A program made the translations under genes and the position numbers. Source: Acidobacteriota bacterium (lineage in GTDB: Bacteria; Acidobacteriota; Vicinamibacteria; Vicinamibacterales; UBA8438). From it: a stretch of DNA of 64,000 bases. Positions within the stretch are counted from its first letter, which is position 1; every line of letters starts with the position of its first letter. Positions 29,337-57,081 of this stretch are shown here, piece after piece. The DNA is taken from the NCBI GenBank assembly GCA_015659035.1, contig DQNS01000028.1:8711-72710 (forward strand). Direction: 5' to 3'. The notes below the pieces were generated by a model. The model saw only the letters and a program-made list of their open reading frames with translations, was not told the origin of the DNA and made no database searches.

Positions 29337-30782
29337 CTACTCGCCGCCCTCGGTTCTGATGCCCTGCCGCTGCCGTTCGGCCAAGCGGGATTCGTACTGC
29401 GCGTCCGACATGAACGCGATATCGGTCCAGCCGTGTCCCATCTCGTCCATGGTGCGCGAGCCCCACCCGATCCAGGCCGAGGGATCAGGGTTGTGCCGGT
29501 TGTTGACCGTGTTGTCGTGCCACGACACCGTGTGAAGAATCGTGCCCTTCGGGAGCAGGTGTGGCTCCTTGTAGGCGTAGACGATCTGCCAGGTCTGCTC
29601 GTAGTCGGTGACGTCGGTCAGCACCTCGCGCCGGCCGTCGACGTGAATCGCCTCGAGCAGCATCCGCTTGCCCCGGAAATGCATATGCGGCTGGAAGCTA
29701 AGGACGAGCCCCGCCTGCGGCAACGGCCAGAACCGCTCGTGCCGCGCGATCGTATTTGGCGGAATGCTCATCAGCGCGACGCCGTTCAGCGTGTTGTCGT
29801 CGATGAGCGCCCCCGTCGGCATCCGCTCCTCGTGCAGGTCGAGGTCGTAGCCGGCCCGCAGCAGCCGGTCCTCGACCGCCTCACGGTTCAGCTTCCAGTC
29901 ATGCCCGATGCCGGTCCGGATGCGGTGCGCCGTGACAATGAGCTCGGGCACCTCGCCCTTGGGGTAGAACTTGATGCCGACCTTCTGGCGGTCGATGGTG
30001 TCCTCGCCCCAGGGGTGGTAGTGCGGCGCAAATCGGAACAGCCCGCCGGCTGGCAGCTTACGCCCTGTGCCGTCCGGGTAGAACTGACCGGTGCTGCCCA
30101 TGGCGTACTCGATCAGGTCGATCTCGCGCGTGTTCGACCCCATGCCCAACCGGAACCCCTCGCGGTCCTCGACGGTCTCGGGCACACTGACATAGACGTG
30201 CGAGTGATGGACGCAGCAGTAGGCCTCTGGAATGATCTGCACCCACTTCACGTAGCGGTCCTCGGTCAGCCCAGGGTCGACGATCTCGGACGGGTAGAAG
30301 TCGGCCCCCTCGGCCGGAATCTTGAACCCTTCCTCCATCTGGACGATGAGGTCCGGCTCGCCGTAGGTCCATTCGTTCAGGTCGGCGAGACCGAGCGGTG
30401 GCGGCGCGTCGGCTGGGTTGCCGCGGGGCGCGCCGGCCTCGACCCAGGCCACGATCGTTGCGATCTCGTCGTCGCTCAGCGAGGGGTCGGCAACATACTC
30501 GCCAATGCTCCGGTCGATGTGCCAGGGCGGCATCTGACGGGCCACGACGCGGTCCCGGATGGCTCGGGCCCAGGGCCGGGTTTCTGCGTAGGTCAGCAGC
30601 GACATCGGGGCGCTCGTACCCGGACGGTGACACTGCTGGCACGACCGCTGGAAGATTGGCAGCACATCGCGCGTGAAGGTGGCGCCATCGTCGGTCTGTC
30701 CCGCCGCGGCGGGACCAGGGAAAACGGCGCTCGCAAGCAGGGCGGCGGCGATGACGGCAACGCGTGTCGTGACAGCACCCAT
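29337..30782 (-). CDS. c-type cytochrome domain fused to a PHM/DBH-like copper monooxygenase domain (paralog 1)
   Basis: Track ORF 29337..30911. ATG 30782 has a GGAGGA RBS at 6-nt spacing, followed by a signal peptide. The haem motif is CQQCHRPGTSAPMSLLTY..RPWA..MPPWH. The His/Met pattern VHHSH ... HYH ... HMHFRGK ... MDEM is in PHM copper-ligand order. Confidence 0.7.
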   Translation of the reverse strand: MGAVTTRVAVIAAALLASAVFPGPAAAGQTDDGATFTRDVLPIFQRSCQQCHRPGTSAPMSLLTYAETRPWARAIRDRVVARQMPPWHIDRSIGEYVADPSLSDDEIATIVAWVEAGAPRGNPADAPPPLGLADLNEWTYGEPDLIVQMEEGFKIPAEGADFYPSEIVDPGLTEDRYVKWVQIIPEAYCCVHHSHVYVSVPETVEDREGFRLGMGSNTREIDLIEYAMGSTGQFYPDGTGRKLPAGGLFRFAPHYHPWGEDTIDRQKVGIKFYPKGEVPELIVTAHRIRTGIGHDWKLNREAVEDRLLRAGYDLDLHEERMPTGALIDDNTLNGVALMSIPPNTIARHERFWPLPQAGLVLSFQPHMHFRGKRMLLEAIHVDGRREVLTDVTDYEQTWQIVYAYKEPHLLPKGTILHTVSWHDNTVNNRHNPDPSAWIGWGSRTMDEMGHGWTDIAFMSDAQYESRLAERQRQGIRTEGGE

Positions 30783-30900
30783 AGGGATTCCTCCAGGCTG
30801 ATGCGACTCGGGCGACATCCGCCAGATTAGCACCAATACGACGCGCTCCGCTTGCACGGAGACGCTGCCCCATGATAAACCGTTTGCCGGAGAGTCGATC

Positions 30901-31686
30901 GTGCGAAACATGACCGTCTATCGAAGGCGCTCTGTGCCGGCGCTTTTGGCCGTCGTGCTGCTGGCCGGGCCATTCGTCGCTGCGTCGTTCGCGCAGAACG
31001 AGCCGGTGTATGCGGTGTATGACGGATTCGTGCTGACCGATGAGGGCTTGCACGTGCTGGCCTTCGCCTATTTCAGCCACAACTTCGAGCCGGTCACTGT
31101 GCCGGTCGGCCCACTGAACAGCTTTGGGCCTGCTCCAGCTGATCGCCAGCAGCCCACCACGTTTCTTCCTGGGCATCACCGTTTCCAGTGCGTCATGGTC
31201 GTGGGGCCGGATTTCGCAGGTGACCTTCGCTGGACGCTGGACCACGCCGGCACGGCCACGACGAGCAGCGACGACATGCTGCAATACAACTGGGAGTTCG
31301 AGGAGCGCTCGGTGCGCAACGTGCTGCGGGACGTCGAGCCGGCCGAGGCGCCGCGGGGCGTCTGCCTGAACCGGTCTCCAACGGTCAGGTTTCTCGGTCT
31401 GCGTAACGGGCCCCGAGGGGCCCCGCCGGAGGTCGTCGCCACCGTCGGCGACGAGTTGAAGCTGTTTGGGAGTGTCAGCGACGAAGGATTGCCGCGCGCC
31501 GGTACGCTGGTCACCCGCTGGCGGATGCTGGGCGGTCCGGGTACGGTGACCTTCAGTGCCCCGGACGAGCCCCGCACCCTGGCCTCGTTTGATACCCCGG
31601 GTGCCTACGAGCTCGAGCTGTGGGCGAGCGACGGGGAAAAGGATGGCAGCAACCGCGTCGCCGTCACCGTCGACCCCGCGCCCTGA
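30901..31686 (+). CDS. secreted hypothetical protein with a C-terminal PKD/Ig-like domain
   Basis: Signal RRRSVPALLAVVLLAGPFVAASFA. C-terminal FSAPDEPRTLASFDTPGAYELELWASDGEKDGSNRVAVTV. ATG 30910 is an alternative start. Confidence 0.6.
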   Translation: MRNMTVYRRRSVPALLAVVLLAGPFVAASFAQNEPVYAVYDGFVLTDEGLHVLAFAYFSHNFEPVTVPVGPLNSFGPAPADRQQPTTFLPGHHRFQCVMVVGPDFAGDLRWTLDHAGTATTSSDDMLQYNWEFEERSVRNVLRDVEPAEAPRGVCLNRSPTVRFLGLRNGPRGAPPEVVATVGDELKLFGSVSDEGLPRAGTLVTRWRMLGGPGTVTFSAPDEPRTLASFDTPGAYELELWASDGEKDGSNRVAVTVDPAP

Positions 31687-31691
31687 CGCCT

Positions 31692-33248
31692 CTACCGGCC
31701 TGGTCTGCCTGGCATCCGGCCGGCCATCGCGTCCAGCTCGTCTGCCGTGATCACGTCGTCGCCGTTGGCGTCGACGCGGTCGAACATCCCTCCGGCCTGG
31801 GCGGGGATCTCCTCACGCGTGATCCGCCCGTCGCCGTTGGCGTCGAAGGAGCGGAGCCGGGCGATCGGGTCGCCCCGCATTCCGCGACCGCCGCGGCCGG
31901 CGCCCGGTCCCATCCGCGCCGGCAGGCTCTCGATCTCATCGGCCTCCAGCACGCCGTCACCGTTCTCGTCCATCCGGTCGAACCGGTCGAGCATCTGCTC
32001 GGGCACTTCGCTCCGGGCGACCAGACCGTCATCGTTCGCGTCCCAGCCTCTGATGCGCTCGATCATCGCCCCTGGGCCGCCGCGTCCACCGCGCCCGGCG
32101 AACCGCCCGCCACCGCGACCGGCGCCAAACACCCGTCCGGCATCCGGGTCGACCTGCAGGCTGACGGCGTAGCTCTGGGTCACCGGGATGCAGAAGGTGT
32201 TGTCGTCGTCACAGGCGTAGTAGGTGACGCTCAGGTCGAACGACGCGGCCGGGTCATCGGTGCTGATGTCGACGAGGAACTCGCGCGGGTCGGCGTCGGC
32301 CGGTTCCTCGATCTCCGCGAAGGTGGCGGACGTCGGTGTGATCCCCACACCGTCCGGGGCTGTCACCTCGTATGTCAACGGCGGCGCCAGGTTGTTCCAG
32401 TGCATGTGGTAGAGCGGGTCGATGTGAAAACCGAGCAGCAGCTTGCCCTCACCGTTGCGAAGGAACTCGCGGTCGACATCGGCGCGTAGCTTCGTGTAGA
32501 ACGGCAACTGGGTGCTGTCGAGGTCCGGCTCCACCTTCAACGTCATCATGCGGCCGGGTGGTGTCACGCGTGGCACGATGCCCTTGACCACGGTCGCCAC
32601 CGGTGGTTCGGATGGCAGATCGAGGTCGGATACTCGTGTCGGGTTCTCCACCGGTCCGATCAGTCGCTCGAGGTCCTCTCGCAGCGCGGTCGGGTCGCTC
32701 CACGCGCGTCGCTCCAGAATGCGCCCGTCCGGGTCGATGATGAACTCGGAGTTCGGCATGTCGCCGAGCGCGTGCTTCAGCTCGTTGGTCATCGCGTCGG
32801 CGATCCACGGAATACGGGACCCGAGCTGCCGCTCTGCTTGCTCGACGTGCATCAGCCGCTCTTCCAGCGTGTAGGGGTCGACGTAGTGGTCGAGCTCGGG
32901 ATGGGCGAGCTGCTTGTACAGGTAGAAGAACTGGACGCCCTCTGGCGTGTAGTCGCGTTCGATCGTCTCCACCCGGGAGACGTTGGCAAGAAACGGCGGT
33001 CAGGTGAGACAGCCGAGAATGAGCACCGCGAATCGACTGTTCAGCAACGCTGGCAGGCGCGACTCCTGGCCGTCACGGTCGTAGACCGCCAGGTTGGGCA
33101 TCAGCTCGCCGACGGCGGGCGCGCTCGCTTCGAAGTTCCGGATGAGCCTGCCGCGACCGTCCGCACCACCCGGTTGCGCCGCCGCTGTCGTCGCCAGGCC
33201 GAGGGAGAACGCCAGGGCGAGCAGACTCGTCGTTCTTGGTTGGAGCAT
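31692..33248 (-). CDS. predicted selenoprotein: secreted deiodinase-like thioredoxin-fold domain (CxxU) + DsbD-N-like domain + four EF-hands; read through UGA 33000-33002
   Basis: Track ORFs 33000..33350 and 31692..32972 are in the same frame and separated only by TGA. The joined sequence reads MLQPRTTSLLALAFSLGLATTAAAQ...SRFAVLILGCLT-U-PPFLANVSRVETIERDYTPEGVQFFYLYKQLAHPE... The middle domain contains GFHIDPLYHMHW...VTYYACDDDNTFCIP. The C-terminus has four DxNxDGxxxxxE loops. A hairpin follows the UGA. Confidence 0.75.
32964..32982 (-). promoter_or_regulatory. candidate bacterial SECIS hairpin
   Basis: The minus strand reads UGA + 17 nt + CGUCUCC CGGGU GGAGACG, a perfect 7-bp stem with a 5-nt G-rich loop. 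The loop starts 24 nt after the UGA. Confidence 0.6.
33000..33002 (-). other. in-frame UGA, predicted selenocysteine codon
   Basis: The codon sits exactly at the U position of the T-U-P-P-F deiodinase motif and three residues after a Cys (CLTU). Confidence 0.7.
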
Positions 33249-49726: not shown

Positions 49727-51205
49727 TCACGTCGTGACCGCGGCGTCCTCTCCGACCGGGGCGCTAGCCGGGAGCTTCGCGATCGAGATGTTGGTCCAGC
49801 CGTAGAGGGCGGCCACCAGCGGGTTGATGAGGTTGAAGAAGCAGAACGGGGCGTAGGTCAGGGTGGCGACACCGAGCGTGCTGGCCATGTAGGCGCCGCA
49901 GGTGTTCCAGGGGACCAGCACCGACGTGATGGTGCCGGCGTCTTCCAGCGTTCGTGACAGGTTCTTGGGGTCGAGTCCCCGTCGCGCGAACTCCGCGCGG
50001 AACATCCGTCCAGGCAGGACGATCGCGATGTACTGGTCGGATGCCAGTACGTTGGTGCCGAACGCCGTCAGCAGGGTGGCCGTGATGAGGCTGCCGGTGC
50101 TATCGACGAAGCCCAGGATCTTCCCGGCGATCGCCTGCAGCTGACCGGTGGTCTCCATGACCGCGCCGAACATCATCGCCGTCATGATGAGCCACACCGT
50201 CATCAGCATGCTCGCCATGCCGCCGCGGCTGAGGAGGTCATCGAGCGCCGGGTTCCCTGACTCGAGCGTGAACCCGTCGAAGAGCGCGATCCAGCAGCCC
50301 TTGACCAGCGCCAGCGGGCGCGCCAGGGTGGGGTCGTCCACGAACGTCACCACCGTCTCGCTCTGAAAGAGCACCGCGAAGAGCGCGCCCGTCAGGGCGC
50401 CGACGAGCAGCGCCGGCAACGCCGGTACCCGGCGGACGATGAGTACCAGTACAAGCACGACCGGGATGAGCAGGTGTGGGCCGATCACAAACTCCCGTTC
50501 GAGCGCGTCGAGGACGACCGCTAGGTCCTGGGTGGGGCCGGGGGTCGGGGCCACGAACCCGGCGGCGGCGAAGAGCACCAGCGCGAACGCCATGCTGGGG
50601 GCTGTTGTCCAGACCATGTGCCGGATGTGGGTGAACAGGTCGGTGCCGGCCACCGCGGGCGCCAGGTTCGTTGTGTCGGACAGCGCCGACATCTTGTCGC
50701 CGAAGTAGGCGCCCGAAATGATGGCGCCGGCCGCCAGCCCGAGGTTGAGCCCCTGCGCTGTGGCGATGCCGACCAGCGCGATGCCGATGGTGCCCGCGGT
50801 GGTCCAGGAGCTGCCGGTCGCCAGCGACACCAGGGCGCAGATGACACAGGCGGCCGCGTAGAAGACCGAGGGGGACAGAATCGAGAGCCCGTAGTAGATC
50901 ATGGTGGGCACCACCCCAGCCAGGATCCACGTGCCGATCAGCGCGCCCACCACCAACAGAATCAGCAGGGCGCTCATCGAGACCGAGATGCCCTGGCTGA
51001 TGCCCCGCTCGATCGCCTGCCACGAGTGCCCATTGCGGATCCCGACGAGGGCGGCAGCGGCCGCCGCCAGGATGAGCGCGATCTGGTTGGGTCCGCTCGA
51101 TGATCCGTCTCCAAAGAGGTAGACCGAGGCGGCCAGCAGTCCGATCAGCAGTCCGACGGGCACGAGTGCCTGGGCGACGGAGGGGCGCGCGGGACTGTCG
51201 GGCAT
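49727..51205 (-). CDS. nhaC: Na+/H+ antiporter NhaC family protein
   Basis: 492 aa and polytopic. GSSWTTAGTIG and SGAYFGDKMSALSDTTNLA motifs. Confidence 0.8.
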   Translation of the reverse strand: MPDSPARPSVAQALVPVGLLIGLLAASVYLFGDGSSSGPNQIALILAAAAAALVGIRNGHSWQAIERGISQGISVSMSALLILLVVGALIGTWILAGVVPTMIYYGLSILSPSVFYAAACVICALVSLATGSSWTTAGTIGIALVGIATAQGLNLGLAAGAIISGAYFGDKMSALSDTTNLAPAVAGTDLFTHIRHMVWTTAPSMAFALVLFAAAGFVAPTPGPTQDLAVVLDALEREFVIGPHLLIPVVLVLVLIVRRVPALPALLVGALTGALFAVLFQSETVVTFVDDPTLARPLALVKGCWIALFDGFTLESGNPALDDLLSRGGMASMLMTVWLIMTAMMFGAVMETTGQLQAIAGKILGFVDSTGSLITATLLTAFGTNVLASDQYIAIVLPGRMFRAEFARRGLDPKNLSRTLEDAGTITSVLVPWNTCGAYMASTLGVATLTYAPFCFFNLINPLVAALYGWTNISIAKLPASAPVGEDAAVTT

Positions 51206-53593: not shown

Positions 53594-54439
53594 TTAGAAC
53601 GCGTCCGGGTGCAGCGCTCGCGCGATCGCCGCCGTCGCCTCGGCCAGACGGGGGCCCGGCACCACGAACTGGTTGCCGAGCAGCAGATGCACGCGCCCGT
53701 TCCGGACCGCCGGGATCACCGGCAGCCGGTTCCAGACCGCGATCTCCGATGCCTGGTTGTCCGGGGTCATCCGGTCGTCGTAGGTGAGCTCGATGATGAC
53801 ATCGGGTGCCGCCGTCAGAATCGCCTCGGAGGTCAGCTGCACCGACTCGCGCCGCACGTCGGCGAACACGTTGTCCCCGCCGGCCGCTTCCAGCATGTCG
53901 TGCAGGAACCCGAACCCGCCGCTGGCGTAGATGTTCCGGAGCGAGCGTGGCTCGCGCCCGAAGACGAGGAGCACTCGGGGGCGAGCCCGGCCAGCGGTGC
54001 GCGCCCGCAGGTCAGCGAGCTGCGCCTCGATCGCGGTGGCCACACGCTGGGCTTGTGTCGTGTGGCCCGTGCGCGTCCCGAGCTGCCGGATGACCGACAG
54101 CGTGTCGGCGAGCCCGCCGTGCGCATAGGAGAACACCGGGATGCCGGCCCGCGTCAGTTGCTGAATCTGGTCCTGCTGGCTGCCGTAGAGGATGACGAGA
54201 TCGGGACGCAGTGCGAAGATCAGCTCCATGTTGGGGTCGATTAACCCGCCGACACGCGGCAGGGTCGCGACCTCTGCTGGGTGCGTGTCGAAGCTGCCGA
54301 CACCCACTAGCTGGGGACCGGCGCCGATCGCGAACAGGGTCTCGGTCAGCGCGGGCACGATGGAGACGATCCGCTCGGGGCGCTGCTGCGCGGTGACCAC
54401 GAGAACGAGACATGCTGCCAGCCCCGCTGTCATCCTCAT
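53594..54439 (-). CDS. btuF: cobalamin/iron-chelate ABC transporter periplasmic binding protein (BtuF-like)
   Basis: Track ORF 53594..54547. ATG 54439 gives the signal MRMTAGLAACLVLVV and an ATGA overlap with the permease stop. RIVSIVPALTETLFAIGAG is the typical cluster A-II N-terminus. The operon is preceded by a cobalamin riboswitch. Confidence 0.65.
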   Translation of the reverse strand: MRMTAGLAACLVLVVTAQQRPERIVSIVPALTETLFAIGAGPQLVGVGSFDTHPAEVATLPRVGGLIDPNMELIFALRPDLVILYGSQQDQIQQLTRAGIPVFSYAHGGLADTLSVIRQLGTRTGHTTQAQRVATAIEAQLADLRARTAGRARPRVLLVFGREPRSLRNIYASGGFGFLHDMLEAAGGDNVFADVRRESVQLTSEAILTAAPDVIIELTYDDRMTPDNQASEIAVWNRLPVIPAVRNGRVHLLLGNQFVVPGPRLAEATAAIARALHPDAF

Positions 54440-55479
54440 CGGCTGCGCACCAGTAGCCAGAGAAAGAACGGTCCGCCCAGCATCGCGGTGATGATGCCCA
54501 CCGGCAGCTCCATGGGCGAGAGCAGGGTCCGTGCCCCCACGTCGCACATCACCAGAAACGCGGCGCCGAGGCCCGCGGAGGCCGGTAAGACCAGCCGGTG
54601 GTCGGCGCCGACCAGCAGCCGCACGAGATGCGGGATGATGATGCCGATGAAGCCGATCGGCCCGCCCAGCGCCACTGCCGCGCCGGTCACGAGCGAGGCG
54701 CTCAGAAACGCCAGCCGCTGCGTGCGCAGCACGTCAACACCCCGCGCCGCCGCGCTGTCGGCGCCCAGGGTCAGCAGGTTCAGCGCGCGCGGCAGCCGGG
54801 CGAACACGACGAACCCGATGCCCATCAGGGGGATCGCCGACAGGATGGGGCTATAGCTGCCGACGTCCAGGTTGCCCATCACCCAGCGCACGGCCTGGAA
54901 CGTTTGCAGGGGATCGGCCAGGAACTGGACGAACAGGATGATCGCCGAGAACAGCGAGTTCAGGGTGACGCCGGCCAGCAACAGCACGTTCGTCGACAGG
55001 CCCTCGCGTCGCATCGTCGCCAGGAAGTAGACGATCGCCATTGCGCCGAGCGCCCCGACCAGGCTGGCGACCGGTCCCCCCAGCACCCCGAGCATGCCCA
55101 ACGGCAGACCGAGCGTGATGGCCAGCATCGCGCCCAGCGACGCCCCGGCCGACACCCCGAGCGTGAACGGGGTGGCCAGCGGGTTGCGGAGCATCGCCTG
55201 CAGGACGACGCCGGCGGCGGCGAGCGAGGCGCCGACCAGCGCACCTGCGATCGCGCGTGGCAGACGGAGGATGAAGAAGATCTGCGCGTCGACGTTCTCG
55301 GCAAACGGGATCGTCGGGTCGAACACCTGCCGGAAATTGATGGCGGTCGACCCGACCAGCGGCGCGGTCAGACAGGCGACCACGGCGAGGGCGCCGAAGC
55401 CGAGCTGGACGAGCCAGACCCGGCGGCGGAGATCACCCGCGCCGACGGGGGCACCCGCGGTCAGTACAGATACAGCCAT
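54436..55479 (-). CDS. btuC: FecCD/BtuC family ABC transporter permease
   Basis: 347 aa. RLPRAIAGALVGASLAAAGVVLQ and GPIGFIGIIIPHLVR motifs. Confidence 0.8.
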   Translation of the reverse strand: MAVSVLTAGAPVGAGDLRRRVWLVQLGFGALAVVACLTAPLVGSTAINFRQVFDPTIPFAENVDAQIFFILRLPRAIAGALVGASLAAAGVVLQAMLRNPLATPFTLGVSAGASLGAMLAITLGLPLGMLGVLGGPVASLVGALGAMAIVYFLATMRREGLSTNVLLLAGVTLNSLFSAIILFVQFLADPLQTFQAVRWVMGNLDVGSYSPILSAIPLMGIGFVVFARLPRALNLLTLGADSAAARGVDVLRTQRLAFLSASLVTGAAVALGGPIGFIGIIIPHLVRLLVGADHRLVLPASAGLGAAFLVMCDVGARTLLSPMELPVGIITAMLGGPFFLWLLVRSR

Positions 55480-55481
55480 GC

Positions 55482-56426
55482 CTATCGTCGGGCGAGCGGT
55501 ACAACCGTCAACTGGTGACTGGCGGGATGACGCCGGATGTCCGCCTCGACGTCATAGACCGCGCCGACGGTCTCCGGTGTCAGCACCGCCTCGGTCGGGC
55601 CGGCCGCGGCGATGCGTCCGTCACGCAGCAGGACCAGATCGCGGCAGAGCCCGGCGGCAAAGTTCAGGTCGTGTGTGCAGATGACGATGGTGGTGCGCCG
55701 GTCCCGGTTCAACCGGCGCAGCAGGTCGGCCGTCTCCAGCTGAAAGGCGAGGTCGAGCGACGATGTCGGCTCGTCGAGCAGCAGCACCTGTGTCTCGTCC
55801 GGGCCGTGGCCGCCGGTGTCCGCGGAGTCTTCGAACTGCGCCAGTGCGCTCGCCATGACGACCCGCTGCTTCTCGCCGCCGCTGAGCGTGCGAAACATCC
55901 GCTGCTCGAAGGTCGCGGTGCCGGTGGCGGCCAGCATCCGCCGCGCGATCTCCAGGTCGGCCGGTCCCTCGAGCTCGAACGCGCGCAGATGCGGGTACCG
56001 GCCCATCAGGACGATCTCGAGCACCGTGTAGTCAAAAGCGAGCTGTGTCTCCTGCGGCACGACGGCGAGCCGACGTGCCAGGGTCGCGCGATTGAGCCTG
56101 GCCGTATCGTGGCCGTCGAGGGTGATCCGCCCGCCGGCCGGCGTCAGCAGCCCGGCCAGCAGCTTCAGCAGCGTCGTCTTGCCCGACCCGTTGGGACCGA
56201 GCACCCCGAGCAGGCTGCCGCTCGGCACCCTCATGCTCACCTCATGGAGCACCAGGTGGGCGTCGTACCGGAACGAGACCGCTTCAGCGCGCAGCAATCC
56301 GGACCCCCGCGACACAGCTGCGGCCGAAACCGGGGCATCCGATGGATCGGTAATTGGGGGAGGGCTCCACAGGCTCCTTTCGGCGTGACCACGCGCCGCA
56401 CCCGTTCGTCTACACGAACGAGTCAT
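55482..56426 (-). CDS. btuD: ABC transporter ATP-binding protein (BtuD/FecE-like)
   Basis: Walker A GPNGSGKTT, signature LSGGEKQR, Walker B LLLDEPTS. The start is uncertain; ATG 56426 is the first ATG after the riboswitch. The track start at 56618 lies inside the riboswitch. Confidence 0.75.
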   Translation of the reverse strand: MTRSCRRTGAARGHAERSLWSPPPITDPSDAPVSAAAVSRGSGLLRAEAVSFRYDAHLVLHEVSMRVPSGSLLGVLGPNGSGKTTLLKLLAGLLTPAGGRITLDGHDTARLNRATLARRLAVVPQETQLAFDYTVLEIVLMGRYPHLRAFELEGPADLEIARRMLAATGTATFEQRMFRTLSGGEKQRVVMASALAQFEDSADTGGHGPDETQVLLLDEPTSSLDLAFQLETADLLRRLNRDRRTTIVICTHDLNFAAGLCRDLVLLRDGRIAAAGPTEAVLTPETVGAVYDVEADIRRHPASHQLTVVPLARR

Positions 56427-56465
56427 AAGGACGTACCCGATGGTCAGGTCTCCTGACTTGCGGAT

Positions 56466-56640
56466 CAACGCGGAACGGCGACGCCTTCCCATGCTCAGTC
56501 GAGCACAGTGGCGGGCGTTCTCGTCTGGGTCGGCCGTGTGGCCAGCGCGTCGGAGGACGTCAGAGTGCCGCTTCGCTCCTCGCTTACAGTGGCGGGACCG
56601 TGTGGGCATCGCACCCACTTCCCATGACCGTTGGGAAACG
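56466..56640 (-). promoter_or_regulatory. cobalamin (B12) riboswitch
   Basis: The minus strand reads GGTCATGGGAAGTGGGTGCGATGCCCACACGGTCCCGCCACTGTAAGCG ... GCCCGCCACTGTGCTCGACTGAGCATGGGAAGGCG. This matches the conserved GGGAA..GGTG..CC..CGG.CCCGCCACTGT core and the B12-box GCCACTG...GGGAAGGC. A downstream hairpin GTCAGG-AGA-CCTGAC contains an AGGAG. Confidence 0.8.
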
Positions 56641-57081
56641 TCGATTGTCTCGTGAGTATAAACGATGACGCGGGGCAGCTACCGAGGACACTCCGCGTCT
56701 GATTCGTCGACCCGACGGGAACCCATCAGACAGCCGTCGAAGCTCCAGCATCAAGAGCCGATACTGATTCACGTCCCGGCCCGGGTTTCCGCACACTGTG
56801 ACGGTGTCACCTATCGCGAACGTCGTGCCGTCGATACCCTTTTGTCTGAGCTGTGTCGCGCCTTCCAGTTCCACCGCCCAGGTCCGGGTCCGAACCTCAT
56901 CGCCCACAACCGAGAGATGAATGAAGGCATGTGGGTTCGTGAGCACGAGACCATCGATGGTGCCCGTGATCGTCGTCGCCTGTCTAACGTCGTACACCTC
57001 GGTGATCAGGTGGTGACCGAAAAGCGGCGTCATCGTCGCGACCGCAAGCAGCGAGATGAGTGCGAACGCGCACGCCGTCAT
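56584..57081 (-). CDS. DUF6152-like small secreted protein
   Basis: Signal MTACAFALISLLAVATMTPLFG, then HHLITEVYD..TITGTIDGLVLTNPHAFIHL..W.VE..GD.V.V.G.P. The last roughly 45 residues are low quality and overlap the riboswitch. Confidence 0.55.
   Translation of the reverse strand: MTACAFALISLLAVATMTPLFGHHLITEVYDVRQATTITGTIDGLVLTNPHAFIHLSVVGDEVRTRTWAVELEGATQLRQKGIDGTTFAIGDTVTVCGNPGRDVNQYRLLMLELRRLSDGFPSGRRIRRGVSSVAAPRHRLYSRDNRRFPTVMGSGCDAHTVPPL

Follow-up and report, generated by a model that had tools for sequence, protein, structure and literature searches.

A 19-nucleotide (nt) stem-loop on the minus strand of a 64,000-nt stretch of Acidobacteriota DNA (contig DQNS01000028.1, the whole of which is called the window below) is very probably a bacterial selenocysteine insertion sequence (SECIS) element that directs SelB-mediated insertion of selenocysteine (Sec) at the in-frame UGA at 33002-33000. 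The hairpin occupies 32982-32964, inside a gene for a deiodinase-like protein. Its anatomy, its conservation and covariation among orthologues, the constraint on its synonymous sites, its decay in orthologues that carry Cys in place of Sec, and the linkage of selA and selB to the gene in some loci were each observed, whereas SelB binding and Sec insertion are extrapolated from better-studied bacteria.

The hairpin is a perfect 7-bp Watson-Crick stem with a 5-nt loop, and the minus-strand mRNA from 33002 to 32964 reads UGA, CCGCCGUUUCUUGCCAA, CGUCUCC, CGGGU, GGAGACG. The UGA (33000..33002) is assigned to Sec, U83 of the motif GCLT-U-PPF, on the basis of the conserved TGA, an alignment with the deiodinase Dio3 and the Cys found in homologues. 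A 17-nt spacer (32983..32999; CCGCCGTTTCTTGCCAA in DNA letters) encodes PPFLAN and is invariant in length across the orthologues. The 5' arm CGUCUCC (32976..32982) combines the third base of an Asn codon with the Val and Ser codons, the apical loop CGGGU (32971..32975) holds a conserved guanosine at 32974, and the 3' arm GGAGACG (32964..32970), directly followed by ATC, combines the third base of a Val codon with the Glu and Thr codons; both arms are defined by sequence, fold, covariation and codon bias. The first loop base lies 24 nt from the UGA, as it does in all orthologues, and the coding context of the hairpin is ...ANVSRVETI. The stem, loop and spacing had been described from the letters alone in an original prediction, and the noted sequence matched exactly on the minus strand; the hairpin is embedded in coding sequence, as claimed, and the gene is a single one of 518 codons. 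RNAfold places the 7-bp hairpin in both the minimum free energy (MFE) and centroid structures, and the isolated 19-nt element folds at -9.9 kcal/mol.

We compared the element with the bSECISearch model (Zhang and Gladyshev, summarised in PMC13188914), which specifies a loop of 3-9 nt, a stem of 4-16 bp, a spacing of 16-37 nt, a G as first or second loop base or both, most often with G or U next to it on the 3' side, and an MFE of at most -7.5 kcal/mol (PMC13188914). The spacing range agrees with the UGA-to-loop range given in the original prediction. The window hairpin lies within all five limits (loop 5, stem 7, GG at loop positions 2 and 3, 24 nt, -9.9 kcal/mol). In its coding-region position directly 3' of an in-frame UGA it also resembles known SECIS elements, as it does in the compensatory changes seen among its Sec orthologues.

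The gene itself (31692..33248, minus strand) encodes 518 amino acids plus a stop and is recovered by joining two in-frame open reading frames (ORFs) across the TGA. Its product has a signal-peptide-like N-terminus followed by a deiodinase-like thioredoxin-fold domain (about 32715-33125), recognised through Pfam T4_deiodinase, NCBIfam deiodinase_rel and Dio3. The match to PF00837 (T4_deiodinase) scores 26.1 bits (E = 6e-6), just under the cut-off of 27, and that to NF038285 (deiodinase_rel) 77.3 bits (E = 1.5e-21), far under the cut-off of 250; on these scores the predicted protein is a relative of both models and a strict member of neither. The best match among solved structures is mouse Dio3 (4TR3, E = 1.1e-5), in which the query LGCLT[U]PPFLANVS aligns with FGSCT[C]PPFMARMS; we take the Cys at this chain position of 4TR3 to be the catalytic Sec, substituted by Cys in the crystallised construct. 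The UGA aligns with the active-site residue of Dio3 and therefore stands at the catalytic Sec position, where the Cys-form orthologues carry their Cys, and the resulting redox motif is CxxU. TGA serves as the normal stop of 16 of the 38 genes predicted for the window, so there is no reassignment of the genetic code.

A protein search returned 776 relatives. The 70 best matches, like the majority of the 120 listed, span only some 75% of the query and start at 'METIERDY', and the named proteins among them are called 'EF-hand domain-containing' or hypothetical. The start chosen in these public gene calls is the NUG codon at +10 (window 32973-32971), which takes in the last loop bases and reaches one base into the 3' arm; truncation of this kind is what gene callers would be expected to produce if they end one gene at a Sec-UGA and begin another beyond it. 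By scanning one genome per species we obtained 80 orthologous loci from Acidobacteriota, Planctomycetota, Gammaproteobacteria, Verrucomicrobiota, Latescibacterota, Poribacteria and Krumholzibacteriia, spanning at least six phyla. The Sec position is TGA in 78 of them and TCA in one (L018), and the remaining locus (L010) is without the 5' half of the gene. At this last locus, from a member of the Vicinamibacterales (L010:2580-3000), the 5' half including UGA and SECIS is replaced by unrelated sequence, which could reflect a disrupted gene or an assembly join. Several genomes hold two copies of the gene: L011/L012 (OY760074.1), L009/L021 (OY761158.1), L022/L033 and L054/L058. One ORF, P0130, begins immediately behind the UGA of one copy and extends as far as that of the following copy, which implies tandem copies.

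To characterize the hairpin in these orthologues, we used an alignment (A2) of 76 sequences, made up of 75 TGA loci and the window; three further TGA loci were found outside it. All 79 TGA sequences (78 loci and the window) have the hairpin in one and the same register, with five or more of the seven pairs, so the register is kept in every Sec orthologue examined, one of the checks that the original prediction had proposed. Paired cells make up 88.7% of A2, a share that drops to 35-55% once the 3' partners are slid. The covariation score of 0.115 exceeds the 0.044 obtained for shuffles, was reached by none of 500 shuffles, and lies above every slid control. Changes on both sides are found in three of the seven stem pairs, in 17 cells altogether and mostly at third codon positions. 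The outer pair (30-48), which joins the third bases of the Asn/Lys and Thr codons, is C-G in 48 sequences, G-C in 10, A-U in two and U-A in two, and each of the states G-C, A-U and U-A occurs in more than one phylum. Pair 33-45, which joins the third bases of the Val and Glu codons, is C-G in 69 and U-A in two, the latter at loci from different phyla and through a synonymous change on either side. Pair 32-46 is U-A in 68, C-G in one and U-G in two, the change from U-A to C-G (L035) being accompanied by an amino-acid change on both sides. The loop sequences fall into six types (AGUUU 32, GGUCU 20, CGGGU 13, AGGAU 6, AGGUU 4 and CGAGU 1), and the second loop base is G in all 76, with G or U as the third in 75.

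To further examine selection on the hairpin, we scored each codon column against the codon usage of the gene in which it stands, using 59 sequences that were left after de-duplication at 90% nucleotide identity and whose genes range from 51 to 72% in G+C content. Hairpin codons +7, +8, +10, +11 and +12 are five of the eight most constrained columns among roughly 95 scored. Val is GUC in 54 of 57 cases (24.7 expected), Pro is CCC in 32 of 34 (10.6 expected), Ser at +8 is UCC in all 25 (6.5 expected) and Glu is GAG in 57 of 59 (35 expected). At the loop codon, +9, the residue is Arg, Ser or Gly and the second base is always G; here Ser is AGU in 25 of 25 cases (3.9 expected) and Gly is GGU in 16 of 16 (3.1 expected). 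Constraint at the synonymous sites of the spacer is not unusual. The codon pattern of the hairpin, together with its loop G, is what would be expected from selection on the RNA and not on the peptide. Raised synonymous constraint was also seen 5' of the UGA, at Leu-2 (CTC, z = 5.7; 33008-33006) and Gly-4 (GGC, z = 4.8; 33014-33012), which might be a context effect on Sec decoding, and further at Arg+48 (CGG) and Ser+101 (AGC).

Orthologues with Cys at the UGA-aligned position provide the complementary comparison. A metagenome scan with the pattern GCLTCP[PA]F gave 120 stretches, mostly chance or unrelated, five of which were Cys orthologues (L129, L141, L145, L158 and L168); L081 and L082 had already been found, and six more Cys forms were fetched individually, the comparison comprising 12 Cys-containing orthologues. 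Their register pairs, of seven possible, number 3, 7, 6, 1, 4, 2, 2, 4, 4, 2, 3 and 5. At least six pairs are thus present in only 2 of the 12, as against 56 of the 59 de-duplicated Sec forms (Fisher test, p = 3.7e-8, for sequences that are not independent), in line with the proposal that the stem would be absent from Cys-containing orthologues. Three Cys forms, L082, L129 and L081, are about 70% identical to Sec forms and about 57% to other Cys forms, which suggests recent, independent conversions from Sec to Cys, two of them (L082 and L129, which lie nested among the Sec forms) with a relic hairpin. The older Cys lineages have Y, F or I for V and A for T at the arm codons and have lost the pairing; the protein therefore does not require the arm peptide.

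The neighbourhood of the gene was examined by clustering the ORFs from the flanks of the 80 loci. In 10 gammaproteobacterial loci, from Woeseiaceae and 'Rariloculaceae' (L028, L036, L039, L040, L047, L067, L068, L069, L075 and L078; gene coordinates, for example, L069:5203-6783:+ and L040:2-1462:-), selA lies no more than 3 kilobases (kb) from the gene (TIGR00474, 549 bits, cut-off 268), and in five of these selB follows selA (TIGR00475, 324 bits, cut-off 242). Both a one-strand order, gene-selA-selB, and a divergent arrangement occur. No other conserved neighbour is common to more than a few loci, and ARAGORN detected no tRNA-Sec in any of the 80.

Several observations weigh against the SECIS reading. 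In a window with a G+C content of 67%, the hairpin by itself is weak evidence and, as a single sequence, only moderately unusual: the stability of the 63-nt segment is not above that of dinucleotide shuffles (z = +0.85; 161 of 200 fold as well), 1.2% of the 1622 TGA triplets on both strands of the window precede a hairpin that conforms to the bSECIS model with a perfect Watson-Crick stem of 7 bp or more, and the share rises to 11.6% if G-U pairs and stems down to 4-5 bp are admitted. Rfam at gathering thresholds found only a cobalamin riboswitch in the whole window and left the hairpin unmatched, while a permissive search of 32900-33060 gave chance-level matches only (mir-236 and flavi_FSE, E about 9-10). 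Nor does the 64-kb window contain a tRNA-Sec (ARAGORN) or selA, selB or selD (Pfam, 37 predicted genes). Among 72 distinct sequences, one stem pair is U-A in 30 and a C·A mismatch in 42; the mismatch arises from Pro CCC replacing Ser UCC and is resolved by RNAalifold as a bulged A, and the hairpins of these Pro-type orthologues, folded in isolation, are no more stable than -5.8 to -6.2 kcal/mol. The hairpin also persists in two Cys forms, L082 and L129, and is fully intact in L018:3001-4173 (P0071), where the Sec codon is TCA (Ser) although the close relatives L023 and L032 have TGA; this TCA may reflect a recent mutation or a sequencing error, or it may mark an inactive allele. The single-sequence argument of the original prediction was consequently weaker than it seemed, the hairpin being statistically unexceptional in GC-rich DNA, whereas its interpretation as a SECIS was borne out by the orthologues. 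It is conservation across these orthologues that places the hairpin beyond chance, and it is because of the comparative evidence, not the lone hairpin, that we decide for a SECIS.

The hairpin might instead be a by-product of a conserved peptide, N-V-S/P-x-L/V-E-T, whose codons happen to be self-complementary and whose RNA has no function. The motif is conserved in the Sec forms and four of the seven pairs are nearly or wholly invariant, which favours this reading, as do the hairpins kept in L082, L129 and the TCA variant L018 and the unexceptional single-sequence fold. However, it is very unlikely that a peptide alone would leave third-position partners covarying in four Watson-Crick combinations, hold synonymous codons nearly fixed far beyond the usage of their own genes, and keep G as second base of a loop codon that alternates between Arg, Ser (solely as AGU) and Gly; the Cys forms, moreover, accept other residues here and lose the pairing. 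Selection at the RNA level is largely established by the covariation and the synonymous-site tests.

Two further alternatives concern the UGA itself. Frame and protein similarity are continuous across the TGA in 79 sequences and the Cys forms are single unbroken ORFs, and these observations leave scarcely any probability that the UGA is a true stop, with two genes or a pseudogene, a downstream part initiated from the NUG at +10, and a hairpin that modulates termination or re-initiation. Such a NUG is present in every sequence, and public calls do begin the downstream ORF at an in-hairpin GTG, TTG or ATG ('METIERDY'), but no Shine-Dalgarno-like sequence lies 5' of +10, and the split would cut the thioredoxin fold at its active site and leave an upstream fragment consisting of a signal peptide and half a domain. 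Alternatively, the UGA could be recoded without Sec, the hairpin stimulating SelB-independent near-cognate read-through, for example as Trp or Cys. UGA-C is a weak termination context and every UGA here is followed by C, although this C is forced by the Pro codon; likewise, the 64-kb window yielded no Sec machinery, but selA adjoins the gene in 10 orthologous loci and selB in five. With the UGA at the position of the deiodinase catalytic Sec, which is Cys in homologues, and a hairpin that agrees with the SelB-type model down to its invariant loop G, we regard read-through of this kind as extremely improbable.

Sec insertion directed by a bacterial SECIS is the explanation that we favour. The SelB-SECIS mechanism is established in E. 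coli and Moorella, and it is from these systems that we infer SelB binding and Sec insertion here. The C-terminal domain of the elongation factor SelB, which would carry GTP and Sec-tRNA(Sec), would bind the stem-loop at its G-containing apical loop, and the tethered complex would deliver Sec when the UGA enters the ribosomal A site; the ribosome would then unwind the hairpin and translate ...VSRVET.... The product would be a secreted, deiodinase-like thioredoxin-fold protein of 518 amino acids with a CxxU motif.

The E. coli fdhF SECIS is the experimentally defined SelB-binding archetype. The window hairpin resembles it in position relative to the UGA, in its G/U-containing apical loop and in presumed SelB tethering, and the GGUCU loop of 20 orthologues resembles the fdhF loop. 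The stem sequences differ, however, the window hairpin is without a bulged U on the 5' side, and the fdhF element is longer (40 nt, starting at the UGA), whereas only the short hairpin is conserved here. Relative to the bSECIS consensus, the element is an in-coding stem-loop 3' of a Sec-UGA whose loop, stem, spacing and energy are all within limits, but the end bases of the window loop CGGGU (N1 and N2 of the model) are unable to pair, and most orthologue stems contain the C·A mismatch or bulged A. In the orthologue loops AGUUU, GGUCU, AGGAU and AGGUU (62 of 76), the first and last bases can pair. The SECIS of the eukaryotic iodothyronine deiodinases serves the homologous catalytic Sec codon, judging from the Dio3 alignment, but lies in the 3' untranslated region, where SBP2 and eEFSec read it, and contains a kink-turn GA quartet; the window element has nothing similar.

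Downstream of the thioredoxin fold, the gene encodes a weakly DsbD_N-like domain that contains two conserved Cys residues (about 32172-32459, residues 264-359; Pfam DsbD_N, 19.6 bits, below cut-off) and EF-hands (about 31716-32000; Pfam EF-hand families). In alignment A1, C346 and C353 of this middle domain, in the motif YYACDDDNTFC, are invariant, and four EF-hands follow it. This architecture suggests a secreted protein that binds calcium and relays electrons internally between thiol and selenol groups.

Elsewhere in the window, a scan for further TGA-split ORF pairs returned only this gene and an antisense artefact at 50142. The cobalamin riboswitch (56426-56646, minus strand, 64.9 bits) lies upstream of genes for an ABC ATPase, a FecCD permease and a BtuF-like protein (53594-56678, minus strand). 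BtuF is listed elsewhere as a selenoprotein family; the BtuF-like gene behind the riboswitch has no in-frame TGA and was ruled out as a second selenoprotein of the window. The downstream neighbour of the selenoprotein gene (29340-30917, minus strand) has no Pfam match; its position-matched relatives in L001, L030 and L062 have a CxxCH haem-binding motif and TPR repeats, and conservation of the neighbour is limited to 4 of 81 loci.

Deiodinase-like selenoproteins of bacteria, with SECIS elements of the bacterial type, were reported from marine metagenomes in 2005 (PMC1088965), and Global Ocean Sampling (GOS) data contained 22 Sec and 21 Cys deiodinase-like sequences of pfam00837 (PMC2398784); a review lists the motif of the family as UxxC (PMC13188914). 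Compared by description, the window protein shares with the marine proteins the thioredoxin fold, an active-site Sec, a bacterial SECIS after the UGA and the occurrence of both Sec and Cys forms, but its motif is CxxU instead of UxxC and it has the DsbD_N-like domain and EF-hands in addition. The element type and the broad protein family are already known, the hairpin is an ordinary, textbook-type SECIS, and knowledge of the mechanism is unchanged by the finding. It is conceivable, though we consider it doubtful, that the gene belongs to a subfamily uncurated in the catalogues, defined by a secreted deiodinase fold with CxxU, a DsbD_N-like Cys pair and EF-hands, near-universal Sec (78 of 80 loci) and a nearly invariant SECIS.

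If such a subfamily exists, the majority of its SECIS elements, with their C·A mismatch or bulged A, would lie below the usual energy threshold, which may explain why annotation pipelines truncate these proteins, and the near-identical SECIS in distant phyla would point to co-transfer of the gene with its SECIS and to broad SelB compatibility. The set provides a well-sampled SECIS under RNA-level selection, with synonymous covariation and relic hairpins after apparently recent Cys conversion, and it could be used to train or test SECIS predictors for GC-rich genomes. For the family itself, the SECIS assignment would correct a database-wide annotation error, in that the true product of the gene would be a secreted selenoprotein of 518 amino acids.

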